DNA from: Thiotrichaceae bacterium UBA973
GTDB taxonomy: Bacteria > Pseudomonadota > Gammaproteobacteria > Eutrophobiales > Eutrophobiaceae
DNA length: 64,000 bases
Direction: 5' to 3'
NCBI GenBank assembly: GCA_002292815.1
Contig: DBBX01000027.1
Coordinates: 64,372 to 128,371, forward strand
In this document: piece by piece, positions 4,336-21,364 of the stretch
How the letters are laid out: each line of letters starts with the position of its first letter
Position numbering within the stretch: position 1 is the stretch's first letter
Made by a program: the position numbers and the translations under genes
Notes under the pieces: generated by a model
The model's input: the letters and a program-made list of their open reading frames with translations, nothing else
Told to the model about the DNA's origin: nothing
The model's database searches: none

Positions 4336-5178
4336 ATGAATATAAATACTGTTAAAAACATAATAAAAAGAAGTGTTCAATATATAAAGCAATTAATAAT
4401 AAATATCAGAAGTTATCTAAGTTGGCGTCTTGGTTCAAACTCTAGTGATACTGTATATTTTTATACGTTTCATCGTTGTTCCAGCCATTTTTTTAGCAAA
4501 TATGTGCTTAAAAATATAAACGGTCTATATAATATTGATTATGCAAAAAAAATATACAGAGGAAAGAAGATTGACCACATTGTTTTTGATAATAAAGGTG
4601 TCATTTATGGTCCTATACGTCTTTCTGCTCCTCCCACGTCAAAGGAATACACATGCCTAGTCCAACCTCTTTCTGATCTTCATTTTATACAAAACAAGCT
4701 AGCTATTTTTTTGATTAGAGACCCCAGAGATATCGTTGTGTCATCCTATTATTCATTTGCACAGACACATGGCTTAAGTCCCGATAATGAAATTCGTAAA
4801 AAACAAAAACAGCATAGAAAAAAATTACAACTTCAAACTATTGATGAGTATGTTCTCGAATCAGCACCCATAGTACAAAGCCACTTTGTCATGCTTGATA
4901 CTATAAGTAATGCTTTCGGGGAAAGTGTCATAATTAAATATGAAGATATGATTGATAACTGGGACTACTTTATAAGCGGTCTAACGAAATTTATTAACAT
5001 AAAACAAACGATACTTAACGAAATTTATAAACAATCAAGACCGCTTGAAAATGAGGATAATAAATCACATCGCCGTTCTGGCAGACCAAACGCTTTTAAA
5101 GATAAATTAAAGATAGAAACAGTAAACTCTCTTAATATTACTTTTAAAGACACTCTTGAAAAATACAACTATATATAA
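4336..5178 (+). CDS. sulfotransferase family protein (PAPS-dependent)
   Basis: 'LIRDPRDIVVSSYYS' matches the 3'-phosphate-binding RDPRD-V-SxY motif of sulfotransferases. 'HRRSGRPNAFKD' resembles the C-terminal RKGxxGxWKxxF motif. N-terminal 'HRCSSHF' sits in the 5'-PSB position. Confidence 0.55.
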   Translation: MNINTVKNIIKRSVQYIKQLIINIRSYLSWRLGSNSSDTVYFYTFHRCSSHFFSKYVLKNINGLYNIDYAKKIYRGKKIDHIVFDNKGVIYGPIRLSAPPTSKEYTCLVQPLSDLHFIQNKLAIFLIRDPRDIVVSSYYSFAQTHGLSPDNEIRKKQKQHRKKLQLQTIDEYVLESAPIVQSHFVMLDTISNAFGESVIIKYEDMIDNWDYFISGLTKFINIKQTILNEIYKQSRPLENEDNKSHRRSGRPNAFKDKLKIETVNSLNITFKDTLEKYNYI

Positions 5179-5230: not shown

Positions 5231-7012
5231 TTACCTTATAATTTTAAATGCTCTAGCAAATACATATTGCTTGTTTTTAATATCGACTTTTATTTCATAA
5301 AGCAATTTATAGTTGTCAGGAAATACATCAGAAAATATTAACTCTTTTGTAAGCCTGGAGTTAATTGAATCAACTTCTTTATCAGGCAGATTCATATAAA
5401 TATTATCTTCTCTAAATAAAAATAAATATTTTATATCTTCTTGATAAGAATACAGTTGTTGCGAATTCATATCTAATAATTGTTTGGTTTTTCTGAGAAA
5501 TTTAAAATCTTTTGGATCCATGATAAAACTATTAGCGATTATTGAGCAATTTGTAAAATAGCGTAAATAATGACCAACTTCTGCTGGGGCCAGAATTATT
5601 CCAGTGTCATTATCACACTGCTTTCTTAACTCTGATGATGCCCAGTAAGTAGCCTCAAATAACTGTGACTTCGGCTGTGCTTTGAACAATGTTTTTGCAG
5701 GCAACGAATATGCAAGTAATATCAATAACATAAAGATAAGAAATCGTATATTTTTCGCAGATACTAATCGTGATGAATTCTGAAAGAAAAGTGCAAGCGG
5801 AGTATATAAGATGAAACTACCAAAATAATGAAATCGCATTTGCTTCAATAAAAAGAAAATAGCCATTAATGAAAATAATATGAAATATATCTTACTTAAT
5901 TCAGTTTTATGACAAACCAGATACAGTAAATATCCAAGCGTAAATGGTAAAAGACAGATAAAAGCCGAATAATTACTTACCGCTTCAACAAGACTAATTC
6001 TTTGTGTTGAGTCAAACGACATGAATGATTTTACTTCTCCCATGGAATGCAAGAATTCAATATCGCCTGATATAAATTCATACCCTGATATTAAATTATT
6101 TACTAACGGAAAAGCGCATATAATCATTAACGAAACAATAAGACTAATGTTTTTTTTGCTTAATGGAATCCGAGATATGATTAATGCAAATATTGAAACG
6201 CAGAAAGAAATGTACAAATGAAAAAATGAATAGTGATAAAAGCTGAATGTGTATTCACGAAATGTTTCAGAAGTTATTAAAAATAGTAATGTGGAAAGTA
6301 ATAACGACAAAGAAAAATGCAATGTTGTTTTAGGCAAAGGCCTCGCAAGTAACCAATAAATTATCAAACTAGCAATTACAGGTGCTTGAAGGACGAACAT
6401 GCTATTGTGTATAGCCATCGACCCACCTAGTACCATACCTACTGAAATTGCATATAGCTTTGATTCAGTAAAACGGAACCACTGAAGAGACAATATAGTA
6501 CTTAAAAGCACCATTGTTAATTCCATATAATGATGGTCAATTCTACCTATAAGGTGTAACTGTTGATTAAGGGGTAGAAAAATAAAGCACGAAATAACCA
6601 GAATTCGATACGGGAATGCTAGTTCGAGTGTCCTACATAAACTGACCATTAAAGCTATGTTTACTATTCCCCACAACGGCGGAATATGGGCCATTATTTT
6701 TACTGGATTAATATCGGTGATAAACATAACTAATTCAATTATTCTTGCAATAAACCAATCATACCCCCAAGGCCAGACAATCCATGCGCCATCTGGTGCA
6801 TGAATCTTGGGATCGAACTGGAGTAATCCTCCATGTTCAATGCTGTCCAATATCCTTACTGCATGGTAAAAAGAATCAGGAAAAGCGGGAGTGTACTCAC
6901 CATTGATCATTGCAAATTCTATATGCCAAATCGAAATTTGGTAAAATAACAAACTTGCAATCAAACAAAGTAAAATATCAACAGCATGTGTAGTGAATAA
7001 GGTTTTAGTCAT
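5231..7012 (-). CDS. GT-C fold polytopic membrane glycosyltransferase (unassigned subfamily), 593 aa
   Basis: More than 10 TM helices. First-loop motif 'FPDSFYHAVRI' (acidic Asp), and a ~150 aa soluble C-terminal domain. No WWDYG motif, so not called as an STT3/PglB oligosaccharyltransferase. Confidence 0.45.
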   Translation of the reverse strand: MTKTLFTTHAVDILLCLIASLLFYQISIWHIEFAMINGEYTPAFPDSFYHAVRILDSIEHGGLLQFDPKIHAPDGAWIVWPWGYDWFIARIIELVMFITDINPVKIMAHIPPLWGIVNIALMVSLCRTLELAFPYRILVISCFIFLPLNQQLHLIGRIDHHYMELTMVLLSTILSLQWFRFTESKLYAISVGMVLGGSMAIHNSMFVLQAPVIASLIIYWLLARPLPKTTLHFSLSLLLSTLLFLITSETFREYTFSFYHYSFFHLYISFCVSIFALIISRIPLSKKNISLIVSLMIICAFPLVNNLISGYEFISGDIEFLHSMGEVKSFMSFDSTQRISLVEAVSNYSAFICLLPFTLGYLLYLVCHKTELSKIYFILFSLMAIFFLLKQMRFHYFGSFILYTPLALFFQNSSRLVSAKNIRFLIFMLLILLAYSLPAKTLFKAQPKSQLFEATYWASSELRKQCDNDTGIILAPAEVGHYLRYFTNCSIIANSFIMDPKDFKFLRKTKQLLDMNSQQLYSYQEDIKYLFLFREDNIYMNLPDKEVDSINSRLTKELIFSDVFPDNYKLLYEIKVDIKNKQYVFARAFKIIR

Positions 7013-7232: not shown

Positions 7233-8669
7233 ATGAATAGTTATATCAATTCAGATAAAAATAAAACGATTCTCATTAATAATTACAGCACCGGGATATA
7301 TTGTGCAATAATTTTATTATTTATTATATTTAGAATACTTATTTATTTTGAAACAGAATATTTTGTAATCTGGTTTGACAGCGCTCAATTTGCAGCAACA
7401 TCATTTGCCTCGGTCTGGTCTAATTTATTCTGGTCAGATGGCATACCCCCATTATATCCCTTTTTTCTGAAGCACTTTACTACGCTTTCAAGCAATCCTA
7501 TTCCAATAGAAAACAGTTTTTTATCTTTATTTTCTTATAACCCAACCATTATTAAGGGAATTGAATTACTAGATAATTATCCCTATCTTCTAGTAAAAAA
7601 TAATTTTGATATAATTTCCGCCTCTTTGTTTCAATTTTTATTTTCTACTTTATCATGCGTCATATTTGCTTTGTCTTTTAGTTCCATCTTTAAAAATATA
7701 TACATCAAATTAGTTTCAACAACATTCATTCTTATGCTCGGCATGGAATCAAGCATCACTCTTTGGGATAAACATATATTAACTGAATCAATATCTATCT
7801 CTTTATTATTTATAACAATATCTTTCCTAATCCATATAAAATATGTCGCAAAAAATATTATTTTTCTTGTGCTTTTTCTATTAATATTAATTTCCCTATC
7901 TTTTATAAAAATTACAAATAACTATCTAATAGTTTTACTAATACCATTAGTTGTTTTTCACTTTATAAAAGGCAATTACAATTATAAAATAAACTATGCG
8001 CTATTATTTTCTACATTACTTTCGCTTTTTATTTTCAATCAATACATGTTGTTTAATGGGGACAGATCCAATGTGCCAATGAAAGATTTAATATCTTCTC
8101 GTATTAGTACTCAAGGATATGAAGACATATATTATTATTTCAGGAATTCCGGCATGCCTGAATTACCAAAAGATACGATTGGAAAGCTATGGACTGCACC
8201 GTTTGAGGATTACCCTGAATTAAATGACTGGTGGATAAACAAATCCTCTAAAACATATCAAACATATTTAATAACACATCCAGGCTATTTCTTTTTTAGA
8301 CCTTTCCAGTATACAAATGAGTTTAATAAACCAGTCTATAATTATCTAACGCCCGATTTGCATTTTCATGAACAAGTTGCTCCAACTAAATTAAAAATTA
8401 TATTTACCGACACATTCCTTTGGATATCTTTTTCGGTATTATCCTTGTTATTACTGTCAATATTTATAAAAAACAAAACTATTGATATTGACAACACTTT
8501 ATTGCCAATATTTTTATTAATTAGCGGAACAGCTTTATATTTAATAATATGGCATGCCGATTTGGGCGAATTAGATCGCCACTTAATTCAATGTGCAATA
8601 ATGCTTAGAATAGCAATACTGATGCTGCTAATGATTTTTGCAAGCTTCCTTGTTAAAAAAGATCATTAA
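7233..8669 (+). CDS. polytopic integral membrane protein, function unknown (candidate GT-C or glycan ligase/polymerase)
   Basis: 478 aa, extremely hydrophobic (Ile/Leu/Phe-rich), at least 10 TM segments with one larger hydrophilic loop (residues ~270-370). It is the only plus-strand gene embedded between minus-strand glycosylation genes. Confidence 0.35.
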   Translation: MNSYINSDKNKTILINNYSTGIYCAIILLFIIFRILIYFETEYFVIWFDSAQFAATSFASVWSNLFWSDGIPPLYPFFLKHFTTLSSNPIPIENSFLSLFSYNPTIIKGIELLDNYPYLLVKNNFDIISASLFQFLFSTLSCVIFALSFSSIFKNIYIKLVSTTFILMLGMESSITLWDKHILTESISISLLFITISFLIHIKYVAKNIIFLVLFLLILISLSFIKITNNYLIVLLIPLVVFHFIKGNYNYKINYALLFSTLLSLFIFNQYMLFNGDRSNVPMKDLISSRISTQGYEDIYYYFRNSGMPELPKDTIGKLWTAPFEDYPELNDWWINKSSKTYQTYLITHPGYFFFRPFQYTNEFNKPVYNYLTPDLHFHEQVAPTKLKIIFTDTFLWISFSVLSLLLLSIFIKNKTIDIDNTLLPIFLLISGTALYLIIWHADLGELDRHLIQCAIMLRIAILMLLMIFASFLVKKDH

Positions 8670-8736
8670 TAAATCAGCTCATGATTATATCTAATATGGC
8701 AAGACTAAAATAATCAGAGCAATGTATTTTTTAATA

Positions 8737-9771
8737 TTATATAAGAAGCTTGTCGTTTTTAACTCTATCGTAATCAGTCTTTGCCATTATATGTACTAAT
8801 TCTTCAAATGTGACTGTTGGCTTCCACTTCAGTACTTCATTTGCGTTTTTAGGATCGCCGACAATTCTATCTACATCTGTAAGCCTAAAATACTTTTCAT
8901 TTATTTTGATTATTTTTTTACCTGTGCTTTTTTCAATTGCAAATTCATCTGTACCTTCACCAGACCATTCCAATTTAAATCCTATTGTATCTGCAGCAAT
9001 TGAAATGAATTCTCTTAACGTATGTGATTTTCCTGTTGCGATTACAAACTCCCCAGGCACTTTTTGCTGCAACATTTTCCACATGGCACACACATAGTCT
9101 TTTGCATAACCCCAATCACGCTCAATATTTATATTACCAAGCTCAAGAACATCTAACTTGTTGTGCCATATCATGGCAAGCGAAGATGTTATTTTCCTTG
9201 TAACAAACTCAGTGCCTCTTAATTCTGATTCATGATTGAATAATATTCCAGCAGAGGCATGAAGATTATAAGCTTCGCGATAATTAATAGTGATCGAATG
9301 CGCAAATTGTTTCGCAACAGAATACGGGCTTCTTGGATAAAATCGCGTATTTTCTGTTTGAGGGGATTCCTGAGCTTTTCCATATAATTCAGAAGTAGAA
9401 GCTTGATAAAATTTAATATCTGAATTTACATTTCTAATAACTTCGAGCAACCTTAAAACTCCAATTGCATTTACTTCACTGGTATATATAGGTTGATCAA
9501 ATGAAGAGCTCACAAAACTCTGAGCACCTAGATTATATATTTCATCAGGCCTTACGGTATCAACAGTTTTGATAATATTAGAGTATTCAAATAACTCTAA
9601 AGGCACCATATGGACTTGTTCAAATACTCCCAATTCTTTTAAACGCCAATTTATCGGCGATGAATTTGGTCTACAGGTACCATAGACTTCATAGCCTTTT
9701 TCTAAAAGAAGTTTGGATAGGAAAGCACCATCTTGCCCTGTAATACCTGTTATCAATGCTCTTTTTGTCAT
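8737..9771 (-). CDS. gmd: GDP-mannose 4,6-dehydratase
   Basis: 'ALITGITGQDGAFLSKLLLEKGYEV', 'FYQASTSELYG', 'FYPRSPYSVAK', 'GILFNHESELRGTEFVTRKIT' and 'RDWGYAKDYV' are canonical Gmd signatures. Confidence 0.85.
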   Translation of the reverse strand: MTKRALITGITGQDGAFLSKLLLEKGYEVYGTCRPNSSPINWRLKELGVFEQVHMVPLELFEYSNIIKTVDTVRPDEIYNLGAQSFVSSSFDQPIYTSEVNAIGVLRLLEVIRNVNSDIKFYQASTSELYGKAQESPQTENTRFYPRSPYSVAKQFAHSITINYREAYNLHASAGILFNHESELRGTEFVTRKITSSLAMIWHNKLDVLELGNINIERDWGYAKDYVCAMWKMLQQKVPGEFVIATGKSHTLREFISIAADTIGFKLEWSGEGTDEFAIEKSTGKKIIKINEKYFRLTDVDRIVGDPKNANEVLKWKPTVTFEELVHIMAKTDYDRVKNDKLLI

Positions 9772-9778
9772 GATTTAT

Positions 9779-10759
9779 TTATAAAAGTGTTTTATATAGT
9801 TTAATATATTCATTAATCATATTCTCAATATTAAATTTACAAATTATTTTATCTCTAGCTTCTTCACCTAAACGCACACAGAGTCTATTATCTTCATATA
9901 ATTCCAAGATTGACTTAGAAAAAGATATAATGTCATCTTGTTCGCACAGCAAACCCGTTTTACTATTATCAATTAATTCTGGAACTGCTGTACAATTAGT
10001 TGATACAACTGGTTTTTCACATGCCATAGCCTCAGCTACCACATACCCAAACCCCTCGTATCTAGTCGGGAATAGTAAAGCATCGCAATTTTGATAATTC
10101 TTTATTAGTTCGTTTAAGTTCAATTTCCCTAGTTTATTAACATTAACATTTTTAATATTACCTTCCGTGTAATTTAACACTATGTTTTCAGGAAGCAGCT
10201 TCATTATTGGTAATAACAAATCAAACCCTTTCCTTTTGCTGCATGAACCAACAAATAGTAAATTAAATTTATCGTTTTTAGTCTTTTTATTTATTTTTGG
10301 TCTAAATAAATTAGTATCTATGCCTGTATTTATTATATTAATTTTTATATCTGGATAATTTCTACTTATGACATCTCCTGTATATTTGCTAATAGCTATA
10401 ACTTTAGATGCTGACTCAATGCTTAATTTTTCATAACGTCTAATTAAATTATTATGATATATTTTTTGTGCTTTTGATTTATATGGCGACAAAGCAAGAT
10501 CATGCACCCAATGATATACAGATATCACAGTCGGTATATTAACTTTTGAAAATGCAAATCCATACCAACTATTTGAATGTATAATATCTGTATTTTTTGG
10601 TGCTTTAATATACTTTAGTGGGTAAGGTAAAAGCTCTGCTAAATGTGGAATCCAGGTGATTTCTGCTTCAACACCATTTTCTCTTAAACCTTTTACCAGG
10701 TTAATAATGAAAATATCTGCTCCAGTACCTGCGCGGATAGTTGGAAACCATATTTTCAT
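9779..10759 (-). CDS. GT4 family glycosyltransferase (GT-B)
   Basis: C-terminal 'EGFGYVVAEAMACEKPVVSTNCTAVPELI' is the E-x7-E GT4 motif. 7-nt gap to gmd. Confidence 0.75.
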   Translation of the reverse strand: MKIWFPTIRAGTGADIFIINLVKGLRENGVEAEITWIPHLAELLPYPLKYIKAPKNTDIIHSNSWYGFAFSKVNIPTVISVYHWVHDLALSPYKSKAQKIYHNNLIRRYEKLSIESASKVIAISKYTGDVISRNYPDIKINIINTGIDTNLFRPKINKKTKNDKFNLLFVGSCSKRKGFDLLLPIMKLLPENIVLNYTEGNIKNVNVNKLGKLNLNELIKNYQNCDALLFPTRYEGFGYVVAEAMACEKPVVSTNCTAVPELIDNSKTGLLCEQDDIISFSKSILELYEDNRLCVRLGEEARDKIICKFNIENMINEYIKLYKTLL

Positions 10760-10902
10760 TTTATTTCACACATCTTTATTTTTTTAAAGCACTATTTAAA
10801 TATCTAGATTATAAAATATGCTTATTCTATATTTATGTTGACACTCTTTCTTCTAGTGAATCTTATACATGAACTTAAACTACACAGATCATCCAATAAT
10901 AT

Positions 10903-11670
10903 TTAAAAATATTCACATATTAAAAATTTAGTTTTTCTATATATAATATAAAAGTACCAATAAAAAGAATACAGCATTTCCCACAAAATGTTTTTACAAT
11001 ATTTGTCATGAACTCGTCTCTCTTCTAAGAAACGCTTTTTTAAACTAGGCCAGTCATTTCTAGAACTTACACCTATTATTCGCATGCATGAAACCACTAG
11101 CCCTATTGATTTTGACTTTATATCTTTTCTGTATATTCGCAAAAGAAAATCATAATCCAGAGCGACTTTAAACGTATCATCAAACAAGCCATGTTTCTGA
11201 AACAATTCTCTTGAAATAACATGCCCCTGATGACATGAACCCATTTTAAAATTTGTAAAAAAACCTAACCCCTTATTAAGTTTAACTATTCTGGTTTTGT
11301 CTGGGTAGATAAATAAAACTTTAAAGATGTATAAATCTAGTTGATCATTAACCAATAGAGAAATTTTATTTAACGTATCCTCCTCAAATAAATAATCGTC
11401 TGAATTAATAAAGAGTATATAATCGCCAGTCGCTTTTAATATCCCTTTATTCATAGCCTCGGCTATGCCATTGTCAGGCTCTGAAACCCAATATGTCACA
11501 CAACTATTATAGTTTCTAATAATATCAATGGTCGAATCGGTAGATCCGCCATCAATAATAATATGCTCAATATTTTTATACGTCTGCCTAGCAACACTCA
11601 ATATAGTGTGCTCAATATATTTTTCTGAATTGAGAGTTGCCGTAATAATAGAGAACTTAATATTATTCAT
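10903..11670 (-). CDS. GT2 family glycosyltransferase
   Basis: 'FSIITATLNSEKYIEHTILSVARQTY...IIDGGSTDST...NSDD' gives the GT2 DxD/DGGS signature. Confidence 0.75.
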   Translation of the reverse strand: MNNIKFSIITATLNSEKYIEHTILSVARQTYKNIEHIIIDGGSTDSTIDIIRNYNSCVTYWVSEPDNGIAEAMNKGILKATGDYILFINSDDYLFEEDTLNKISLLVNDQLDLYIFKVLFIYPDKTRIVKLNKGLGFFTNFKMGSCHQGHVISRELFQKHGLFDDTFKVALDYDFLLRIYRKDIKSKSIGLVVSCMRIIGVSSRNDWPSLKKRFLEERRVHDKYCKNILWEMLYSFYWYFYIIYRKTKFLICEYF

Positions 11671-11842
11671 TAAAATATCTAAATAATTAGAATTGCAATT
11701 TAAAACAAGGAGATATTATTTGTTATATTTTAGTAAGCAATAATTATTCACTAATAGAAAATTTCAGATAATAATTTATTCACATTATCCTTATGGAGAA
11801 AAGACTTACTAACATAAATAATAATATTTTTATGTTTAAAGT

Positions 11843-12562
11843 CTACAGCATTAAAATTTGTTGTACCCCATTAATATATTTAGAATATTTCGTCACTCTT
11901 AATGGGAAATGTTTAGTTATCGTATCCGCAACTGCCTCATCTTCCACATCGTACTTCAATTCCAGAATGGTAGATAACCTGTCAGATGATACGAATTTAA
12001 AAGAATTGAATCGTTCTCCTATTCGATAATTATAGAGCTGATTATCAATTGTAAGCCTGAATTTTTCACATTTAGAAAGATAATATTGGCGTGTGTAATT
12101 ATTTAGCAAGATGGGTAGAAGTAAGTCCAGATGTCGTTTTATGTTTTCTGGCAAGGCACTTTCTTTAATGTGGTTCCTAAAGTAGTCAGATGTAAAATCG
12201 CTATTTAGGGAAAAAGGCTCCAGAGAAAAATACTTTTTCCGCCCGGCAAAACCATTTTTTATTTTTAACTCCAGGACAGGGCTTGTAACTTTGCCAAAGG
12301 ATTCGCCATACCAACGAATTCGCGTTTTTAATCTTTTTGCAATACCTTCTATGTTTTCTATGACCGCATTTAGATTTCTAGTATCAAAATATATATTATT
12401 TATTATTCTTGTTGGAAACTGTCGGCAAAAACTTGCAGGATGAAGCCTGACAATGGATTCAATTTCGCTTACGGACAGTTCTCTAACTTGAAATTTTCGT
12501 TCATACCGATAGGTGTGATTACTGTCTATTTTAGTTGCTGCTTTTTCCATAAGACACACCAT
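11843..12562 (-). CDS. VTC-domain (polyphosphate-polymerase/CYTH-like) protein
   Basis: 239 aa, 'YRYERKFQV...IYFDT...' resembles bacterial VTC domain proteins (PF09359). Overlaps the upstream CotH-like gene by 32 nt, indicating translational coupling. Confidence 0.55.
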   Translation of the reverse strand: MVCLMEKAATKIDSNHTYRYERKFQVRELSVSEIESIVRLHPASFCRQFPTRIINNIYFDTRNLNAVIENIEGIAKRLKTRIRWYGESFGKVTSPVLELKIKNGFAGRKKYFSLEPFSLNSDFTSDYFRNHIKESALPENIKRHLDLLLPILLNNYTRQYYLSKCEKFRLTIDNQLYNYRIGERFNSFKFVSSDRLSTILELKYDVEDEAVADTITKHFPLRVTKYSKYINGVQQILML

Positions 12563-15188
12563 ACAGTATTTTTTCGATATTAAATTGGTCCCCTTCTATA
12601 ATATCTTCGTTAAGACTAAGCACCGATCCATATTCAATCAGACTTGTTTCCCCTTTGCCATCCGATGTAAAATTATTGATATTTATTTTCCCGGGTCCAA
12701 ATTCAGATTTTTTCTGAAAGGCAACAAAAGCCACACTACTCTTGGTTACACGTACATTATTTAGCTTAATTACAGAGTTATCTTTACTGGTAATAGCAAG
12801 CTCTGTATTACGTACATCAATATCACTGCCATTTACTATACTCGCTTCTCCCGCGCTTATACCCTTATCAGCAACACTATTCATTTGTATATGATGCATT
12901 GTGATATCAGTCCCGGATATATCAATGGCGTCATTACCAATATTCTCAAAAATTGCCTTGTAGATATTACCTTGACCAAAATCAATATCTAGCGCATCAG
13001 CTTTAATATCAGTGAACTTAAGGTGGTTCAGAGAAAACTTTGACCTAACGATATTAAGTGCATCCTCTGATTGAGTGCCGACAAAATTCACATAATCTAT
13101 CTTTGAGGGAGACTCATAAAAAGTAATCGTTCCTGATGTAGACCAGTTGTTTTGTGCAGGATGTAAAAGTGAATCAATATTAATATGCTGAAGTTGTGAT
13201 TCTCTATTGGACTTAAGCACTATCATCCCTTGTCCTGTTTTATCCGTTGTAGTTATTAATATAGGGTTATCTTTGGTACCTAGAAATCGTACCGGTGATC
13301 TTGATAAGATCACAGCATGATTATTTAGAATTAGTTCTGCCCCTGGTTGTGCTTCAAGAGTAAAGCCTTCAGGGACAATCAAATTTTCATTAATTATATG
13401 CCGCCCCTCAGGGATCGTCAGCATAATTTCGCTATTACGCTGTATAAATTTGAATAATTCGACATTTCCAACCTGCCGCATTAAATCCCCTTTAAGAGTT
13501 GCTATATCTTCATTTTTTTTCCAGGGATAAACACGAGCTGAATGAATCTTCAATAATCCAGGTCTATTATAGTTAAGGGAAAGACAGGCAGGAAAGTTAT
13601 CCAAACTTTCTAAACTAGGATCATAAGTGAAATTAATATTATGAACCATCGTAGTACTCAGTTCAGCTGGAGAAACTAGTAGTGATTGATTCTCTAGTGC
13701 AGAAAAAACGTAATCACCGCATGATAGATTTAAAATTTCTATAGGCAGCCTGTTATCGATTACCTCAACATAAATATCGAGACGATCTTCATGAGTATTA
13801 TTGAGGTATGCTTTTATTCTAACCTTGTTCAAATGTTTTGAAGCATAGTCTCGTTTTTTTATTAAAATAGTTTTGTCGAATATAAAGGCAGCCGGGCCGA
13901 AAGAAAAGACATGATCTTCTAAAGGGAACTCTGAATATATCAATCCGAGATTATGTTTGAGTTCTGCTTCTATGCTAAGTAAAAAATTTTCTAAATAATC
14001 TGGCGCGGCAAGTTTCTCTAACGCGCGAATGTATTCTCGGATGAATTCTTGATCCACTTTTCTTGGTGTGTTAAATAACTTATAAAAATATTCACGCCAA
14101 TCTTCATAGATAAAATTATTAGGAGTAATACCTCGTTCATAGGCAAAGATTGGTTTCTCCTTATTAAAGAAATTATGCCCATCAAAAGCTATCGGTTCGA
14201 GACGAGAAGTTATTGGATTATAATAATAACGGACACTTTTCGGTACCGCACCATGGTGGGTTCCCATAATGTCAGTAATCGCATAAAACATTGCAAGCTT
14301 CTTTGTGTCGAAAACTTCACCTACAGATAACCTATCATCCCTGTATCCCTCTAGAAGATTAATTGCTTTAGCTGTGACTGGCGAAAATTCAGATTTTGTC
14401 CATTTCTTTTCATTGAAAGGGGTAACTTGCATATCAGAAAAAAGATTCTCTCCTCGCGTGCTTTCATCAAAACGAATAATAGGACTATCTTTCAGTCCGT
14501 ATCTTTCTACCAGATATTTATCATAGTGTTCCTCCAGCGCGTATACTCCAAGATTCTTACCGTTTATAGAAAGATTTATAAAAATATAATTTGGGGAAAT
14601 CAATCCTTCTCTCTTGACGAGTTGCAGAAAAATCCATTCATAAATATAGTTTCGCGCCCTCGGTTTATGAAGCGAAAATGTTTTCATAGCATAAAGGGTA
14701 TTGTCTCCCTTTATTTCCACCCTAAAAGAAGCATTCGATAGACTTTCAAAATGGATCTTACGCTCACCCTTTAGTCTTATTTTTGCTTTCAATTGTTTGT
14801 TTCCTTGGGTAATCTTTACAGGCACATATTCAAATTTTTGATCCTCCGTAATGAGTGGAATAGCTTTTCTTCTCATATATTCGAGTTTTTGCATGTTAAT
14901 ATGCGATATGTCGATCGAGAGATTTTCCGCTTTATTAATTGAACCCCGAATCGCATTAATAATTGCTTCGGGATAGGTTTTAATGGATTTAGTTATCTGT
15001 AACGTTTTATTGATTTTATTCCACGCGGCATCGGATGATGTTGGATTTATATTTGCAAAAATTAATAACCCGGCGATAATAAAGAGGTTAATACAAATTA
15101 TCAGGCAGGAGAAAACATTCCAAATCTTCTGCGGTGTTCGCCCACTAACGCTTTTATTTATAAATAATGTTCCCCCCTTTAGAATCAA
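12531..15188 (-). CDS. CotH kinase-family protein with N-terminal TM anchor and C-terminal right-handed beta-helix domain
   Basis: 'IRLKGERKIHFESLSNASFRVEIKG...YAMKTFSLHKPRARNYIYEWIFLQLVKREGLISPNYIFINLSINGKNLGVYALEEHYDKYLVERYG' follows the CotH (PF08757) core pattern. N-terminal hydrophobic helix. C-terminal repetitive beta-helix-like region ('NNHAVILSRSPVRFLG...'). Confidence 0.65.
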   Translation of the reverse strand: MILKGGTLFINKSVSGRTPQKIWNVFSCLIICINLFIIAGLLIFANINPTSSDAAWNKINKTLQITKSIKTYPEAIINAIRGSINKAENLSIDISHINMQKLEYMRRKAIPLITEDQKFEYVPVKITQGNKQLKAKIRLKGERKIHFESLSNASFRVEIKGDNTLYAMKTFSLHKPRARNYIYEWIFLQLVKREGLISPNYIFINLSINGKNLGVYALEEHYDKYLVERYGLKDSPIIRFDESTRGENLFSDMQVTPFNEKKWTKSEFSPVTAKAINLLEGYRDDRLSVGEVFDTKKLAMFYAITDIMGTHHGAVPKSVRYYYNPITSRLEPIAFDGHNFFNKEKPIFAYERGITPNNFIYEDWREYFYKLFNTPRKVDQEFIREYIRALEKLAAPDYLENFLLSIEAELKHNLGLIYSEFPLEDHVFSFGPAAFIFDKTILIKKRDYASKHLNKVRIKAYLNNTHEDRLDIYVEVIDNRLPIEILNLSCGDYVFSALENQSLLVSPAELSTTMVHNINFTYDPSLESLDNFPACLSLNYNRPGLLKIHSARVYPWKKNEDIATLKGDLMRQVGNVELFKFIQRNSEIMLTIPEGRHIINENLIVPEGFTLEAQPGAELILNNHAVILSRSPVRFLGTKDNPILITTTDKTGQGMIVLKSNRESQLQHINIDSLLHPAQNNWSTSGTITFYESPSKIDYVNFVGTQSEDALNIVRSKFSLNHLKFTDIKADALDIDFGQGNIYKAIFENIGNDAIDISGTDITMHHIQMNSVADKGISAGEASIVNGSDIDVRNTELAITSKDNSVIKLNNVRVTKSSVAFVAFQKKSEFGPGKININNFTSDGKGETSLIEYGSVLSLNEDIIEGDQFNIEKILYGVSYGKSSN

Positions 15189-15877
15189 GCCAAAATCCCT
15201 TGTTGGTCAATGAATGTTATTTTGATGTTACTGTCTATATTGGTCAGTTTCTGAGTCAAGTTTTCCAAACTTTCCGTGTTATTGACTTGAGTATTAAAAG
15301 TAACCTCGATTAAGTCTGCACCGCTATCAAGCCGTCTTAAATCAACCCTGTCACAACTATTGTTAACGATGTTCACAATGGCATCAAGATTCACATTTTT
15401 TTTATCCTGGCTGCTAATTGTAATAAACATATTTGACTGAGAAAGTAATTCATCTCGGGTTATCTTCTTAAGGCCAATAATTACAAAAACAGTGAGAATG
15501 AACGATATGATGATAATTAATCTTTGATCAGCACCAAGCCCAAGCCCTATGGATATAGCAAGGAACAAATAAGTCAGCTCTTCAGGTTCTTTGATTGCCG
15601 CCCTGAAGCGAACGATAGATAGTGCGCCGACCAATCCCAATGAAAGTGCCAAGGATGACTTTACAATACTGATTACGGTCATCGTAATCATTGCTAATAG
15701 TACTAGGTTCTTGGAAAAGGATTCTCTATTTGAGAGAGAGTTCCCATAGAGTCGGTATATATGGCTAAGCACGTAAGCCAAAAAAGCAGCAAGCAAAAGG
15801 TTGACAGCAAAATTCAGAGGATCTACCTGGATACTCTGTGAGTTAAGAAAGTTTTCAAATGTGTTAGTTTTTTCCAT
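15185..15877 (-). CDS. DUF4956-like membrane protein
   Basis: 230 aa with ~4 TM helices and a soluble C-terminus. 4-nt overlap with the CotH gene. The VTC/CotH/DUF4956 trio is a recurrent gene neighbourhood. Confidence 0.45.
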   Translation of the reverse strand: MEKTNTFENFLNSQSIQVDPLNFAVNLLLAAFLAYVLSHIYRLYGNSLSNRESFSKNLVLLAMITMTVISIVKSSLALSLGLVGALSIVRFRAAIKEPEELTYLFLAISIGLGLGADQRLIIIISFILTVFVIIGLKKITRDELLSQSNMFITISSQDKKNVNLDAIVNIVNNSCDRVDLRRLDSGADLIEVTFNTQVNNTESLENLTQKLTNIDSNIKITFIDQQGILA

Positions 15878-16081
15878 CAGTTATATACCCTATTAATATC
15901 TGTCTTCGTATGTGGAGAAAAAATAAATACCTTGCTTAATTAATACAATTTAATAAACGTATTGTAATTCAGCTAATTATTAATAATTAGACCTCGAATC
16001 TGACTAAAATATAATACTGATTCTTAGCGAACCAATAATGACATAGTGTTTTGAGTAAAAATAATTTATCAACAAAAAACA

Positions 16082-18109
16082 TCACCTCATCGTACGTACA
16101 ATATATTGCGCAGACTTGAATATCCAATAAGGTGTCATGTGCCTGAGCAATGCATAGCTTAGAACCAAAATCTGTACTGGGGCTCGTAATTTTCTGCGAC
16201 CACCAATCAAAGGAAACTTGCTAGCAACTTGATTGGCATATTGCATACACCACAATATTGATGTTCGACCATAGTGTAGCTTAGACGCACGAATGCTCTC
16301 CTTTATTGACCGATCACGATAGTTACTTGTTTTATTCTCTGGGTACATGCGCGACGCAGCAAGTGTCACGGGCAAATAAAGAAATGGGGTATATCTTGAA
16401 TAGCGAAGCCAAAGCTCATAATCAAGTGCCATATCATAATTTATATTCAAATTGCCTGCTGTATCAAGTAATCGCCGATCAAAAAATACACTCGGTTGAC
16501 AAATACAACAGTGTTGCAACAAATTAAGCAAACTGTAGGTATCTGTTGGATATCGACCAGTGCGCCGACTTTTCTTATCTATATAGTCGGCTTCACCGTA
16601 AACTAACCAGCAACCACTCTGCCCTAATAAACCTGTCACCGCAGCTAGTATTGCACCGGGTCTATACAAATCATCGGAATTCAACCAGCCAATAATTTCA
16701 CCACTGCTGTGAGACAATCCCTTGTTTATAGCATCTGCTTGACCATCGTCAGATTCTGATATCCAGTAAATATCATTTCCGTAGGACTTTAATATTTCTA
16801 CACTGCCATCTGTTGAGCCACCATCAATGATAATAACTTCCATGCTTGGATAGTCTTGTTCAAGAATGCTATCAATGCATTCTCGGAGAAAACGCGACTG
16901 TTGGTATGACGGCACGATAATACTTACGAGTGGGAATTCATCAATTTTTTTCTCTAGTCTTTTACTTGACCAGTGATTCGGATTATCAAATACTGCAGGC
17001 GCTTTGCGTAATGCATCAGCCAATATAGGTATTACATTTGTCTTATTGAAATTTGACAACCTACTACGTCCCTTCTCTACTAACTCTTTACAAAGACTAT
17101 CGTCCTGCCAAAGTCGTTGCATCGCTGCCGCAATTTCTTCAGGGATTTCAGGATTAAAATATATTGCACTGTCGCCAGCAACCTCCGGCAAACTCGTTCG
17201 ATCAGAACAAGCAATAGGGCAATCACTGGCCATTGCTTCGATAAGCGGTATACCAAAGCCCTCAAAATAAGAAGGAAATACTAGGCCTCGGGCACGACGA
17301 TAAAGAATTGGCATATACTGTTCATCCACATAACCAAGCCATGTAACAGCACTTTCTAAATTTAAGTCCTTGATGGTTCTGATTAACTCTTTATGAGCCT
17401 TGTGCTCCCACCCTGTAAACACTAAATGTAGATCCGGCACAGTCTTTCGTACAATAGCTAAGGACTTCAACAATCCCAGATGATTTTTATGTGGCCACGT
17501 GTTTGCGGGATAAAGCAGATACCGTAAAGGCAACTTGTCCAATAATGCAACAGGCAAAGTTCCTCCTGTCGTGTTATTAAGAAACTGTTGTGACAAGATG
17601 GGCGGTGTCAAAATGATTTTATCACGAGGAATTCCCAAAAATGTTTCTGCCTCTTCAGCTACGAATTCCGAAATCACACAAAGCGTTTGTGCTGCTCTAG
17701 CAGGCCATTCCCAATACTGTGCGCGATTTCTTAATTCAATAAGATTAAAATTTTCTGGATAACTACGGTGCTGCAGATCAACCAAAAGAACAACCATAGG
17801 ACAGCAAGCCGTTTCTACACCCGGATTCATCAACGGTGCGAACAGCACATCAAACTCACCATGTCGATAGTGATTCTCTATTTCATTACTCTGCCAACGC
17901 GTAGACACAACACGTATCCTATGGCTAGAATCGTCAAACAGGTGCTTAATAGCGTTGTTTACGAAATAGGTAAATAACAGATCCGTTTCTCGGTTCAGTC
18001 CGTCCAAGAGGCTTAGGACCAAAGGCATAATGCCCCCAACACTACCTGGGTTAAGTGGTGTCAGATTAACGCCAACCCTAATAGGTTTTTTTTCTATTGG
18101 TAAGACCAT
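16082..18109 (-). CDS. bifunctional glycosyltransferase: N-terminal GT4 domain fused to C-terminal GT2 domain
   Basis: GT4 motif 'EGFGIPLIEAMASDCPIACSDRTSLPEVAGD' (residues ~280-310). GT2 signature 'IVPSYQQSRFLRECIDSILEQDYPSMEVIIIDGGSTDGS...NSDD' (residues ~395-480). Confidence 0.75.
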   Translation of the reverse strand: MVLPIEKKPIRVGVNLTPLNPGSVGGIMPLVLSLLDGLNRETDLLFTYFVNNAIKHLFDDSSHRIRVVSTRWQSNEIENHYRHGEFDVLFAPLMNPGVETACCPMVVLLVDLQHRSYPENFNLIELRNRAQYWEWPARAAQTLCVISEFVAEEAETFLGIPRDKIILTPPILSQQFLNNTTGGTLPVALLDKLPLRYLLYPANTWPHKNHLGLLKSLAIVRKTVPDLHLVFTGWEHKAHKELIRTIKDLNLESAVTWLGYVDEQYMPILYRRARGLVFPSYFEGFGIPLIEAMASDCPIACSDRTSLPEVAGDSAIYFNPEIPEEIAAAMQRLWQDDSLCKELVEKGRSRLSNFNKTNVIPILADALRKAPAVFDNPNHWSSKRLEKKIDEFPLVSIIVPSYQQSRFLRECIDSILEQDYPSMEVIIIDGGSTDGSVEILKSYGNDIYWISESDDGQADAINKGLSHSSGEIIGWLNSDDLYRPGAILAAVTGLLGQSGCWLVYGEADYIDKKSRRTGRYPTDTYSLLNLLQHCCICQPSVFFDRRLLDTAGNLNINYDMALDYELWLRYSRYTPFLYLPVTLAASRMYPENKTSNYRDRSIKESIRASKLHYGRTSILWCMQYANQVASKFPLIGGRRKLRAPVQILVLSYALLRHMTPYWIFKSAQYIVRTMR

Positions 18110-18126
18110 AAATATTTAGTATTACT

Positions 18127-20025
18127 CTATATTTTTCTAAATAAAATGATGCCGGTGGATATATAGATTGCAGTATACTTATCTACGTCTTTCCATTTAT
18201 CCAACTTAATTGTAGCGACTACATATTTTGGCAATGGGAGATTTGAGACCATTGAAGCATTACTAACACCCACATGTCTAAAACTTATATTTCTTTCACC
18301 ATTGTATCCCGCCTTTGAAAGCATCCATAAAGGGTATTCCCAACCTCCCTCATTACAATATATTCCTACAACCTTTTGCTTTTCTAATTGTAAGATACTT
18401 ATTACATTCATGAATTCTTGATAGACATCTTTTGTATTCTTGAAATAAAACTCAGCTCGATCTTTATAATACCAATCGAGAGATATTAAGGAGCGAGTTT
18501 TGTTAGCAAAAGTAAAAATCAAACCATAGCAAAACAAACATATAAGAATCACATAACTGAAGCGTTTTCCGATAGCCCTATATTCTGTTGTTGTAATTGC
18601 AATTGCAATTAATGGTGCGGCCATTGCGAATAATGGCGTGTGAAGCCTGCTTGCCCATGGTTGCCATTTTAATAAGAAGAAAAAGAGTAAAGCGCCTAGT
18701 ATTAGGCTAATAGCGTACCATGTCGTGCGATAATAATATCCCTTCAATAATAATAGTGGCAATAGAATCAGTGTGAGAAAAATAATTAGCATATGAATTA
18801 AATTCCCAGCAAAATCTTCATGCCAATTATACGGAATATAAAAAGTAGTGCCTTGCAAGGTTGTTCGAGGATTATTCAGTTGAGAACCTAGCACATCCTT
18901 CAAAGTTTTTTCCAAAACATTATTAATTAGGATTGAAGGTGTGCCTATGTGTAACGCACCATTTCTTACAGTATTCGCAAGCAAAGCGGCAGGAGACGCA
19001 TCCTCGTTATATAATTGTTTTACTTCGGTTGATAAAGGATGTCCGTACAGTTTAAAGTTGCGTGAAAAGTGTCCCGCATTCAGTACAAGAGCAATAAAGA
19101 CTATTAGCGAAAGTTTTACTACAACTTCTTGAATCCGAGCCCGATTAACGCCGCATTCTATAAATAGTGGGATAGCTAGTATTGTGCCTACGGCAGCACA
19201 ATATATATAGGCTGTACCTTTAGTCATAAGCGCTAACCCCAACGCAATGGTTCCAAAGAGAATATTTTCAAAACTAAAATTTCTTTGAATGCGAAGCATG
19301 AATAATGCAAAAGACATTATAAAACTAGATACAACCAAATCATTTTGTGTACTCGAAGCCTGTAGTACTCCCATCGGTAAAGTCGCAATAATAAATGCTG
19401 TTATTAGCTGCTGTCTTTTATCAAGACCTAGTTCAGCAGCAATAACAAAACCAAGGCAAACAATCACAAGAAAGCTGACCCACTGAACGAGATTTGCATA
19501 CCAGTCTGAACCTGTTAAAACCTGTAAATGCATAATTGCAAACTCTGCAAGCGGTGCTAAGTAATTCTGTCTCGTAATCGAGGTAGGATAAAATGATACA
19601 TCGTTGTTATTTATCCAATGTACCACTCGAGACATATGATAAGTCATTGAGTCCGAGGTATTAGGTGGATGCAAGATAGCGGTTAAAAATGTTGCTGCCA
19701 AAATCAAAACTATCGCTGCTGTAAGAAGATAGGTTTGAGAAGAATACTCATGCGCTTCCTGAATTTTTAATACTTCAGTGTTCCGAAACTTTGAAATGAT
19801 AGCTAACAAAGAAATGAAGAATAGAACCCACATTATTAATACACACGAAAAAGAAATACTATTAATTGCTGATAGAAATTCTGTCGAAATTAAAATGAAT
19901 GTAAAAACCACTAGATGTGCTTTGATTAATGCTTCTAAGATAGTTTCCACTTTCAGTTGTCGCGTGAAAACAATCATCAGTGCAATATATGAACTTACAG
20001 GTAAAAGTAACAGCGAGAAACTCAT
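18127..20025 (-). CDS. GT-C fold polytopic membrane glycosyltransferase (same unassigned subfamily as 5231-7012), 632 aa
   Basis: More than 11 TM helices. First-loop 'SDSMTYHMSRVVHW' parallels 'PDSFYHAVRI' of the 5231-7012 protein. Soluble C-terminal domain. Confidence 0.45.
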   Translation of the reverse strand: MSFSLLLLPVSSYIALMIVFTRQLKVETILEALIKAHLVVFTFILISTEFLSAINSISFSCVLIMWVLFFISLLAIISKFRNTEVLKIQEAHEYSSQTYLLTAAIVLILAATFLTAILHPPNTSDSMTYHMSRVVHWINNNDVSFYPTSITRQNYLAPLAEFAIMHLQVLTGSDWYANLVQWVSFLVIVCLGFVIAAELGLDKRQQLITAFIIATLPMGVLQASSTQNDLVVSSFIMSFALFMLRIQRNFSFENILFGTIALGLALMTKGTAYIYCAAVGTILAIPLFIECGVNRARIQEVVVKLSLIVFIALVLNAGHFSRNFKLYGHPLSTEVKQLYNEDASPAALLANTVRNGALHIGTPSILINNVLEKTLKDVLGSQLNNPRTTLQGTTFYIPYNWHEDFAGNLIHMLIIFLTLILLPLLLLKGYYYRTTWYAISLILGALLFFFLLKWQPWASRLHTPLFAMAAPLIAIAITTTEYRAIGKRFSYVILICLFCYGLIFTFANKTRSLISLDWYYKDRAEFYFKNTKDVYQEFMNVISILQLEKQKVVGIYCNEGGWEYPLWMLSKAGYNGERNISFRHVGVSNASMVSNLPLPKYVVATIKLDKWKDVDKYTAIYISTGIILFRKI

Positions 20026-20107
20026 CTTATACTTTAATGCTCTCTATTTTTAAGAATAGTTTATTTAAAGACATACGCGGAACTATTATTGACCACCATA
20101 TTTTTTT

Positions 20108-21364
20108 CTATAGAAGAGAATGATACAGATCAATATATTTTTTTGCTTGTAGATCAGATGAGAAATTTTTAATCGCAGTCTCTCTACATCTATCACGTAG
20201 GGAATATTCTGTTGCTGGTGTATTTAAAAAACTTTCAATCGCTTCTACTATTGCTTTTACCGTCAATTCTTTAACCAGATAACCTGATAACCCAGGTTTA
20301 ACCAAGTCACTTAAACCTCCTTGGTCAAATGCGACAACTGGTGTGCCGCAAGAAATTGATTCCAGCACTGTATTTGGTAAATTATCTTCACGGGAAGGCG
20401 CAATAAATAAATCAGCAGCACTATAAACCATAGGCATTCTCTCTTCTATATCAACATAACCGAGATGAATATGATTCTTCGATAATTCCTGCTGTGGGGC
20501 ACCACCACCTACCGTTAGCAAGAAGATATTTTTAGAACTAGCAATTGTTTTTAAAGCCTCTACAAGTATATCAAACCCTTTTCTGTGATTATCCAGCCCA
20601 TCAGCTACAAATAAGAGAACTTGTGTATCTTCTGGTATGCCAAGTAATTTTCTGGCTTTTAATCTATTTCGTGGCTTAAATATATTTATATCTAATCCAT
20701 TTGAAATACAATGAATCTCATAATTCATAAGTAGTTTACTACGCCTAGCTGTTTCGGCCAGCCAGCGACTTGGTGCTACGATGCACACGCGATCTCTAAA
20801 GTATTTATTATATGAATAAGATTTTGAAGAAAAACTTTTATTCGAAATATCATTGGCACTACGATTATCGAGTTGAGGACAGTTCCCACAATTATTGATA
20901 TAACCGTTACAATTATTAGAATAATGACATCCACCTGTAAAAGCATTCATATCATGCAATGTCCATACAATTGGTTTATTTTGAGGTATCGATGAGAAGA
21001 AATCGTTGTAATTAAACATATCAGAGATCCAGTGCAAATTAATAATGTCAGCATTGAAATCGATATCACTCAACCTTACGCCTTCGGAAAGCGTTGCCGT
21101 AGAAAATCTCTCAAATCCTTCTGGTCTGTTTTTTAAATATTTTTTATTTGCAGCTTCCTCTCGAAGAAATAAACGACGACGTCTTATTCGGGAAAATAAA
21201 TTACGTCTTTGCCATGTCCATTTTAAATAACCAGGTTTGTCAGTATCTCCTTCCCTATAAAGAAAACGGCTTTCAATGTTTTCTTTACACAACCCCATAT
21301 GCAATCGTTGTGCGGCAATAGCTGCACCACCGACCAACAGAGTATTAAGATGAAGAACGCGCAT
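20108..21364 (-). CDS. GT4 family glycosyltransferase
   Basis: 'MRVLHLNTLLVGGAA' N-terminus and C-terminal 'EDNLPNTVLESISCGTPVVAFDQGGLSDLV' (E-x7-E). Confidence 0.75.
   Translation of the reverse strand: MRVLHLNTLLVGGAAIAAQRLHMGLCKENIESRFLYREGDTDKPGYLKWTWQRRNLFSRIRRRRLFLREEAANKKYLKNRPEGFERFSTATLSEGVRLSDIDFNADIINLHWISDMFNYNDFFSSIPQNKPIVWTLHDMNAFTGGCHYSNNCNGYINNCGNCPQLDNRSANDISNKSFSSKSYSYNKYFRDRVCIVAPSRWLAETARRSKLLMNYEIHCISNGLDINIFKPRNRLKARKLLGIPEDTQVLLFVADGLDNHRKGFDILVEALKTIASSKNIFLLTVGGGAPQQELSKNHIHLGYVDIEERMPMVYSAADLFIAPSREDNLPNTVLESISCGTPVVAFDQGGLSDLVKPGLSGYLVKELTVKAIVEAIESFLNTPATEYSLRDRCRETAIKNFSSDLQAKKYIDLYHSLL

Follow-up and report, generated by a model that had tools for sequence, protein, structure and literature searches.

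A portable DUF4956-CotH-VTC cassette of surface-glycan clusters with a predicted Vtc4-like active site

How could an enzyme of kinase fold act on a polymer beyond the cytoplasmic membrane, in a compartment that holds no ATP? The question is raised by three tightly packed genes in a 64,000-nucleotide stretch of Thiotrichaceae bacterium UBA973 (contig DBBX01000027.1, positions 64,372 to 128,371; hereafter the window), which lie in a glycan cluster with the ABC-transporter genes wzm and wzt and encode a DUF4956 membrane protein, a CotH-fold/beta-helix protein and a VTC-domain protein of the triphosphate-tunnel type. The VTC protein carries the catalytic residues of the yeast polyphosphate (polyP) polymerase Vtc4, the CotH-fold protein is predicted to lie largely outside the membrane, and the three genes are closely linked across phyla. 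We advance, at a rough probability of 0.4, the reading that the cell makes polyP in its cytoplasm and hands it, through or together with DUF4956, to the external CotH/beta-helix protein, which would then modify an exported glycan.

The three genes are contiguous and co-oriented on the minus strand, as seen from the open reading frame (ORF) list and from Pfam. The DUF4956 gene (15185..15877, 230 amino acids (aa)) and the CotH gene (12531..15188, 885 aa, TTG start) overlap by the 4 nt TTGA (15185..15188); the junction reads gcTTGAttc, with the TGA stop overlapped by the TTG start. The CotH gene in turn overlaps the VTC gene (11843..12562, 239 aa) by 32 nt (12531..12562), or by 20 nt with the alternative VTC start at Met5 (nt 12550; 235 aa), which agrees with database entry P0121. 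A preliminary description of this DNA, made from the letters alone, had given the same 4-nt and 32-nt overlaps, which match the ORF list exactly, and had named the three families. All three proteins match them above the Pfam gathering cut-offs: DUF4956 with E=2.5e-16, CotH (PF08757) with E=6.2e-11 over aa 138-411 (42.8 bits versus a cut-off of 23.8), and VTC (PF09359), the sole Pfam domain of the 239-aa protein, with E=4.3e-26.

Single-sequence searches of the PDB with the three proteins gave nothing usable, and profiles were required. A profile of 54 VTC homologues, searched against PDB sequences, matched the tunnel domains of the yeast Vtc2/Vtc4 structures (3G3O, E=3.5e-6; 3G3Q, E=4.2e-5). 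In order to number 3G3Q as full-length Vtc4 we used an offset of +185, taken from the profile range shared by 3g3q_A and 8i6v_E, and this offset puts K, R, R, K, Y, R, S and K at the published Vtc4 positions. The residues in question, K200, R264, R266, K281, Y359, R361, S457 and K458, coordinate the triphosphate and are needed for polyP synthesis, while E426, the ninth listed residue, is a Mn2+ ligand (bioRxiv 10.1101/2023.01.27.525886). Eight of the nine align to K23, R81, R83, K100, Y156, R158, S227 and K228 of the VTC protein, and all eight are invariant in the 54 homologues. K228, within the motif YSKY, aligns to the FSKF of Vtc4 and hence to K458, the Lys that separates active Vtc4 from the inactive Vtc2 and Vtc3, where the position is Ile or Leu (bioRxiv 10.1101/2023.01.27.525886). 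For E426 the putative counterpart is the invariant E201-x-K203, matched by motif outside the HMMER alignment.

Neither the VTC protein nor any of its homologues (0/54) has a transmembrane (TM) segment. Judged by its residues, the protein is a soluble cytoplasmic enzyme with an intact, Vtc4-like predicted active site and with neither SPX nor TM domains, and it most likely makes polyP from ATP in the cytoplasm. The family to which it belongs comprises 3,414 clusters at 50% identity (E<=1e-3), or 2,200 at E<=1e-10.

The eukaryotic VTC complex (3G3Q, 8I6V; Vtc4/Vtc3 or Vtc2/Vtc1) has the same tunnel domain and the same catalytic residue set, and it couples polyP synthesis to membrane transit (bioRxiv 10.1101/2023.01.27.525886). 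Coupling of the polymerase to a membrane component is physical in yeast and genetic in the window, where the VTC protein has no fused TM domain and its membrane partner, DUF4956, shows in the fold searches made no relation to the Vtc TM domain. The logic that we propose, by which the chain is made on one side of a membrane and handed over to the other, is common to both. The destination also differs, being the vacuole for yeast VTC and, as we propose, the periplasm or cell surface for the window, where the CotH-fold protein is an extra partner.

The AlphaFold2 model of that 885-aa protein has a mean pLDDT of 89.7 and a pTM of 0.73, and shows four parts, all encoded on the minus strand. A TM signal-anchor helix (15060..15116, aa 25-43; hydropathy peak 2.85, helix 18-47 in the model) is followed by the CotH kinase-fold domain (13824..14927, aa 88-455; Pfam, profile and Foldseek), by a beta-sandwich linker domain recognised from the secondary structure of the model (13524..13817, aa 458-555), which is poorly conserved with 0 invariant residues, and by a right-handed parallel beta-helix (12594..13424, aa 589-865; model and Foldseek). 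Hydropathy, model and fold searches thus bear out the preliminary assignment of a TM anchor, CotH core and C-terminal beta-helix. Many phyla have homologues (about 880 aa) that are built in the same way, and these carry Pfam Beta_helix/Pectate_lyase_3 matches. By Foldseek, the CotH domain is closest to 5JDA (E=7.5e-12) and 5JD9 (E=1.6e-11), with TM-scores normalised to the target of 0.63-0.67, and the CotH family profile matches the B. cereus CotH 5JD9 with E=1.5e-5; the beta-helix matches PL6 alginate lyases, the AlgG epimerase, polygalacturonases, phage tailspikes and NosD.

Topology was assessed from charge distribution around the anchor. The first 22 residues of the CotH protein, before its single TM helix, hold 4 K/R and 0 D/E. 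Exactly one N-terminal TM helix is present in 49/56 family members, with 3.86 K+R before it versus 1.92 after it. By the positive-inside rule, the N-terminus is predicted to be inside, and the CotH domain and beta-helix would both lie beyond the cytoplasmic membrane.

In B. subtilis CotH the catalytic Asp is D228 and the metal-binding Asp is D251, and the characterised CotH enzymes are Ser kinases (PMC7821199). Corresponding positions were located by aligning the B. cereus CotH sequence to the hidden Markov model (HMM) of the CotH family. The metal-binding Asp ('PWD', D251 in B. subtilis) aligns to D336, which is D in 54/56 and D or E in 58/61 sequences. The catalytic Asp (B. cereus 'NFDG', B. 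subtilis D228) aligns to H312, and the position is His in 54/56 and 55/61 sequences; both placements are well anchored by the flanking motifs A-x-x-[ND]-L-x-G and Y-x-N-P...E-P-I. K140, R156, E219, E220 and R320 are invariant, in a domain with 14 invariant and 38 near-invariant residues, and the site, as read from these alignments, appears conserved but non-canonical. As for the earlier label of 'CotH kinase', fold, family and metal-binding Asp uphold it, but its strict sense is not supported, given the His that stands for the catalytic Asp in the clade of the window. K152 and N318 had also been considered as degenerate sites of the window protein, and were rejected since these positions vary across the family.

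The spore-coat CotH of Bacillus (5JD9/5JDA) therefore shares with the window protein its fold, its Pfam family and an acidic residue at the metal-binding position (D251 = D336). It differs in that the window protein has a near-invariant His for D228, is predicted to be membrane-anchored and extracytoplasmic, is fused to a beta-sandwich and a beta-helix, and stands outside a sporulation context.

The most conserved part of the protein is the beta-helix, with 21 invariant residues, 15 of them charged, a conservation that exceeds that of the kinase-fold domain. The invariant residues form a ladder with a spacing of about 22 residues (D709, D731/D734/D736, N752/D753/D756, D774/K775/E781, K802/D803 and K826/K827/E829), and E852 is a further invariant charged position. 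This ladder is probably a second binding or catalytic site, predicted to accommodate a linear anionic polymer. No known lyase or epimerase motif was recognised in the beta-helix (aa 589-865).

DUF4956, the third component, has 4-5 hydrophobic helices, a conserved basic juxtamembrane loop and an ACT/ferredoxin-like beta-alpha-beta-beta-alpha-beta domain at aa 150-224. A polytopic membrane domain followed by a C-terminal ACT-like domain is the layout of MgtC/YhiD. The best match to PF02308 (MgtC) has E=0.0037, under the gathering score, and for NF007431 the score is 17 bits where 214 are required; the protein is thus, on these comparisons, a likely remote relative of MgtC/YhiD, with a similarity too weak for transfer of function. 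Fold searches with the DUF4956 model matched the ACT-like domain only, the membrane domain being without a match. DUF4956 also differs from MgtC/SapB/YhiD in that it is a separate Pfam family, shows far stronger conservation (about 50% identity between phyla) and is paired with VTC. As to orientation, two loci, L061 9266..10663 and L071 9299..10642 (Acidimicrobiia and Anaerolineae), carry a signal peptide and a LamG-like (3-keto-disaccharide-hydrolase) domain N-terminal to DUF4956, which puts the N-terminus of DUF4956 on the outer side; at these two loci the survey detected no CotH gene. The long 'DUF4956' ORFs met in the survey were such N-terminal LamG-like fusions or artefacts of ORF calling.

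Does the trio occur elsewhere as a unit? We searched one genome per species with a DUF4956 profile and took the best 80 of more than 579 matches; genes at these loci were detected with HMMs built from our own alignments on crude, naive ORF calls, to which Pfam and a model for canonical-type CotH were added. The closest matches to the DUF4956 of the window (at least 40% identity) make up these 80 loci, and the co-occurrence rates that follow hold for that subfamily only. They come from Planctomycetota, Bacteroidota, Verrucomicrobiota, Pseudomonadota, Spirochaetales, Omnitrophota, Gemmatimonadota, Nitrospinota, Marinamargulisbacteria, Methanosarcina, Woesearchaeota and others. Among the 48 loci with enough flank, a VTC gene on the same strand was present in 44, a CotH gene in 41 and both in 39. 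The window order DUF4956-CotH-VTC with tight junctions was the commonest, being found at 29 of the 80 loci, all from other genomes, and therefore recurs more than by chance. Culturable carriers of this order include Roseimarinus sediminis DSM 28824 (L049) and Maribellus mangrovi FJH33 (L063). The median gap between DUF4956 and CotH was 1 nt (29 other loci), and that between CotH and VTC was -18.5 nt (26 other loci), an overlap that is overestimated as the ORF calls take the longest ORF.

The flanks of the 39 full cassettes are rich in glycan genes. Their 185 genes include 13 GT4 and 10 GT2 glycosyltransferases (GT), together with methyltransferases, GMD/epimerases, sugar dehydratases, Polysacc_synt_2, Bac_transf, Wzz/GNVR, Wzy_C, Poly_export and a polysaccharide lyase. 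The neighbourhood survey that the preliminary description had called for thus confirms that the trio recurs in such surroundings. Three relatives illustrate the range of contexts: one with 62% identity (L085) has, by its Pfam-labelled neighbourhood, the same Wzm/Wzt cluster with a sulfotransferase inserted, one with 43% identity (L086) has the cassette in a cluster with rmlBDAC and an MsbA-like exporter, and that of Sedimenticola (L087) lies in a Wzx cluster. Since it is found with Wzm/Wzt, MsbA-like and Wzx exporters, the trio is a portable cassette, one that shifts among glycan clusters whose export routes differ.

Two CotH architectures occur among these loci. The first is that of the window, with TM anchor, CotH domain carrying the His, and beta-helix. 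The second is an LTD-CHB_HEX_C-CotH architecture of Verrucomicrobia: in five Verrucomicrobiota loci (L021, L024, L028, L038 and L062) a signal anchor, a Lamin-tail domain and CHB_HEX_C/Fn3_assoc precede a CotH domain in which the canonical catalytic Asp is kept, no beta-helix is present, and the CotH gene follows the VTC gene (order DUF4956-VTC-CotH). Three archaeal loci, from Methanosarcina sp. Mfa9 (L017), a Woesearchaeota genome (L081) and an archaeon MAG (L046), have a complete cassette in the window order with the TM-CotH-beta-helix architecture; archaea have neither periplasm nor outer membrane. A Kordiimonadaceae MAG (L077) carries 2-3 tandem VTC/DUF4956/CotH modules, in both orientations, within 12 kb (9228..20659).

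The trio has been met before, in Pel loci. Genes for cotH, a 'poly-phosphate polymerase' and DUF4956, with DUF4832, directly adjoin pelDEADAFG in streptococci, clostridia and bifidobacteria (Whitfield et al., bioRxiv 10.1101/768473), and in S. intermedius the trio corresponds to SIR_1594/1593/1592 (PMC12345266). There, deletion of the DUF4956 gene raises Pel, deletion of the CotH gene lowers it, and with either deletion aggregation in artificial sputum medium falls by more than 50% (PMC12345266). The streptococcal CotH homologue is described as secreted and the DUF4956 protein as having an intracellular ACT domain (PMC12345266). The Pel-linked and window trios therefore agree in that the three families are contiguous beside a surface-polysaccharide locus, with CotH extracytoplasmic, VTC cytoplasmic and DUF4956 a membrane protein with an ACT-like domain, by description in the one case and by prediction in the other.

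They also differ in several respects. The Pel loci concerned are Gram-positive, whereas the window comes from a Gram-negative-type marine host and a Wzm/Wzt cluster, with neither contiguity to pelDEADAFG nor the DUF4832 hydrolase; indeed, Pfam scans of the ORFs flanking the trio gave no Pel or DUF4832 matches. The Pel-linked CotH has FN3, while the window CotH has a TM anchor and a C-terminal beta-helix, and the streptococcal CotH is reported to keep the catalytic residues, whereas the window CotH has His for Asp. The trio is also present, according to the literature, in NELoc-2 of C. perfringens, beside a chitin-synthase-like GT. Between the VTC and CotH genes of that locus lie 'tubulin/FtsZ' genes (~225 aa), which, going by the Pfam description of the family, we take to be DUF4956. 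Synteny of the trio was reported as not found outside Pel loci (mBio 2025, PMC12345266), a statement that the present survey corrects. Compared with the literature consulted, what is new is how widely the cassette is spread among bacteria and archaea beyond Pel loci, along with its occurrence here in a Gram-negative Wzm/Wzt cluster, the TM-CotH-beta-helix architecture, the His at the catalytic position and the conserved charged ladder of the beta-helix.

How might the three proteins work together? In the reading that we favour, they would form one conserved envelope module spanning the cytoplasmic membrane. The VTC protein, of Vtc4 type, would polymerise polyP from ATP in the cytoplasm; DUF4956, its near-constant membrane partner, would receive the nascent chain and move the chain, or phosphoryl groups, across the membrane, in a role functionally analogous but not homologous to that of the eukaryotic VTC channel; and the external CotH-fold protein would take polyP as donor or substrate to (poly)phosphorylate or tether an exported glycan, with the beta-helix holding the polymer. 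PolyP is proposed as the external donor because the compartment beyond the cytoplasmic membrane has no ATP, and given this and the near-obligate linkage of the genes, a handover of polyP would be the simplest interpretation. A more specific form of the proposal, in which a VTC-like synthase and an MgtC-like protein move polyP or phosphoryl groups out as an ATP-independent source for a CotH-fold glycan-decorating transferase, with the His acting possibly via phospho-His, is in our estimate rather doubtful.

Several points weigh against a handover of polyP from the VTC protein to an external enzyme. Deletion of the VTC gene of S. intermedius gave no clear phenotype, and the authors suggest that polyP may stay cytoplasmic (PMC12345266). 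We found in the literature no biochemistry for any bacterial member of the trio. The membrane domain of DUF4956 has no likeness to the Vtc TM chains or to any solved transporter, and no VTC-DUF4956 or DUF4956-CotH fusions occur among the homologue lists and surveyed loci. MgtC, the nearest relative of DUF4956, is known as a regulator and not as a channel. Kinase chemistry is uncertain for the CotH domain, because His replaces the catalytic Asp in the clade of the window, and the linkage was measured in the DUF4956 subfamily closest to that of the window.

It could be, instead, that polyP itself is the exported product, and that the CotH/beta-helix protein binds, anchors, trims or attaches the chain through its Asp/Lys ladder and divalent cations. 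The VTC residues, the topology and the synteny support this possibility equally as well as they support glycan modification with polyP as donor, a most conserved domain charged rung by rung would suit a linear polyanion, and the His speaks against ordinary kinase chemistry. However, repeated embedding in glycan clusters, as well as the Pel phenotypes, suggest that a glycan takes part, and the module-linked CotH of Verrucomicrobia retains a canonical Asp and does without the beta-helix. We therefore consider export of polyP for its own sake unlikely.

Regulation offers another explanation, in which CotH would be an extracytoplasmic protein kinase, as it is in spore coats, that controls glycan production by phosphorylating proteins of the envelope or of biosynthesis, with VTC and DUF4956 tuning phosphate or Mg2+/ATP homeostasis as MgtC does. 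Characterised CotH enzymes are indeed Ser kinases (PMC7821199), the same hypothesis has been put forward in the literature for the Pel-linked genes, the streptococcal deletions alter the amount of Pel (PMC12345266), and DUF4956 is remotely MgtC-like. Such a kinase would nevertheless lack an ATP source outside the membrane, and in the window clade it would have His in place of its catalytic Asp; its C-terminal domain, moreover, is a beta-helix resembling carbohydrate enzymes and not a protein-interaction domain. Near-obligate linkage of the three genes, with sub-operonic spacing across phyla, suggests one machine over loose co-regulation, and a regulatory role appears quite improbable to us.

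The proteins might also have separate functions, with the beta-helix a polysaccharide lyase, epimerase or hydrolase at work on the exported glycan, CotH a pseudokinase scaffold, and VTC a CYTH-type triphosphatase or some other tunnel enzyme with no part in polyP synthesis. CYTH enzymes are diverse in activity, the canonical catalytic Asp has been lost, the beta-helix resembles PL6 lyases, AlgG and polygalacturonases, and Pel loci carry dedicated hydrolases according to the literature. A decayed site would, however, hardly be expected to keep the invariant residues of the CotH domain (K140, R156, E219/E220 and R320) along with H312 and D336, the VTC protein keeps the Vtc4-specific Lys that is absent from inactive paralogues, and the three genes are almost always together, so that we find independent functions very unlikely.

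Least tenable, and in our view highly improbable, is a scheme built on the preliminary description. In it, a sugar, perhaps xylose, at the non-reducing terminus of an O-polysaccharide would be (poly)phosphorylated by the trio in the cytoplasm, giving a WbdD-like cap that ends the chain and is read by the C-terminal domain of Wzt. The window Wzt does have a Wzt_C domain and the trio is co-oriented with GT genes, but WbdD-type capping and recognition by the Wzt carbohydrate-binding domain are cytoplasmic while most of the CotH/beta-helix protein is predicted to lie outside the membrane, the cassette is found, too, in Wzt-free clusters of the Wzx, MsbA-like and Pel synthase types and is therefore not tied to Wzt, Pfam shows no WbdD-like kinase, methyltransferase or coiled-coil features, and a UDP-xylose synthase is not established. 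The more general idea of a phosphate module in a surface-glycan pathway is sustained by the domains, their close packing and the glycan cluster, and what is not supported is the Wzt-read cap, the link to xylose and, as said above, the strict sense of 'CotH kinase'.

The surroundings in the window are those of an ABC-transporter-dependent (Wzm/Wzt) glycan cluster, and every neighbour from 8.7 to 25.8 kb is on the same minus strand as the trio. Upstream lie Wzm (24962..25810), Wzt with its Wzt_C domain (23765..24958; PF14524, E=2.2e-10), directly downstream of wzt a 722-aa fusion of radical-SAM and CsaB-like polysaccharide pyruvyltransferase (21503..23671), a GT4 (20108..21364), a PMT_2-like GT-C membrane protein (18127..20025) and a GT4-GT2 fusion (16082..18109). 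Downstream are a GT2 (10903..11670), a GT4 (9779..10759) and GDP-mannose 4,6-dehydratase (gmd, 8737..9771), which passes the TIGR01472 cut-off. The co-oriented GT2, GT4 and gmd neighbours noted in the preliminary description, and a Wzt with its C-terminal domain, are thus all present, and the glycan of the cluster is plausibly an O-polysaccharide. The supposed UDP-xylose synthase, a 315-aa SDR (2543..3490, plus strand), scores 92 bits against the UXS model, whose cut-off is 294; it reaches no NCBIfam equivalog cut-off, its best match is a dTDP-glucose dehydratase, and we regard it as a generic SDR. The same locus is found, identical, on several marine-metagenome contigs.

Compared with the WbdD/Wzt system, the window likewise has a kinase-fold protein in an ABC-transporter glycan cluster and a Wzt with a C-terminal domain. 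WbdD, however, is cytoplasmic and combines a eukaryotic-like kinase with a methyltransferase and a coiled coil, whereas the window protein is of CotH fold and its predicted location is the periplasm; Pfam scans of the cassette proteins gave no methyltransferase or protein-kinase domains and no WbdD-like features. Unlike the WbdD/Wzt system, cassettes of the window type also occur with non-Wzt exporters.

GC content along 8000..20000 is a mosaic, with 35-36% in the trio, 29% in the downstream GT2/GT4 genes and 41% in the upstream GT4-GT2 gene, which is consistent with a glycan cluster put together from modules. Scans of the 8.5-26.6 kb region for promoters and terminators gave counts at chance (103 promoters found versus 85±11 expected, and 9 terminators versus 8.2±3.4), and we therefore make no claim on transcription units. 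No RNA family was found in an Rfam search of the window.

Other genes of the window bear on the processing of its glycan. An STT3-like oligosaccharyltransferase (5231..7012; TIGR04154, E=4e-13, under the cut-off) and two PMT_2-like GT-C proteins (440..2038 and the one at 18127..20025 mentioned above) are encoded on the minus strand. STT3-like and GT-C enzymes act on the periplasmic face; the glycan of the cluster would therefore be further processed in the periplasm, which fits an external CotH step. The radical-SAM/pyruvyltransferase fusion is also kept in the 62%-identical relative L085. A sulfotransferase gene is present in the window cluster (4336..5178, plus strand), and that of L085 (13495..14322) sits directly after the VTC gene; the same glycan may carry sulfate as a further anionic decoration. 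Farther away, two glycan-gene blocks flank a type IV pilin gene (32925..33398), within 28819..38928 on the minus strand. The pilin gene is adjoined by genes for a 634-aa protein without Pfam matches and a 624-aa TPR protein, with a methyltransferase-GT2 fusion and a PilR-like sigma-54 activator at a greater distance, and the region may represent a pilin-glycosylation arrangement. A perfect palindrome with an 18-bp stem (26527..26567; ATCCGCTATTATGTTCTA...TAGAACATAATAGCGGAT) separates a GT4 gene from the start of an ArsR/EarA-like HTH gene (25976..26521), and could be an operator or a bidirectional terminator.

Synthesis of polyP in prokaryotes is attributed to PPK1 and PPK2. If the proposed activity is true, the VTC family would add a eukaryote-type polyP polymerase as a third prokaryotic route beside them. 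The periplasm and the cell surface are without ATP, and the combination of a cytoplasmic polymerase, a membrane partner and an external kinase-fold protein describes a testable route by which phosphoryl chemistry could reach the envelope without it; if true, this would explain in general terms how enzymes of kinase fold can function beyond the cell membrane. The cassette is found in O-antigen-like, capsule-like and Pel clusters, including those of pathogens (streptococci, and NELoc-2 of C. perfringens), and what it makes could be an anionic modification of surface glycans that has gone unrecognised and that bears on aggregation, immunity and recognition by phages.

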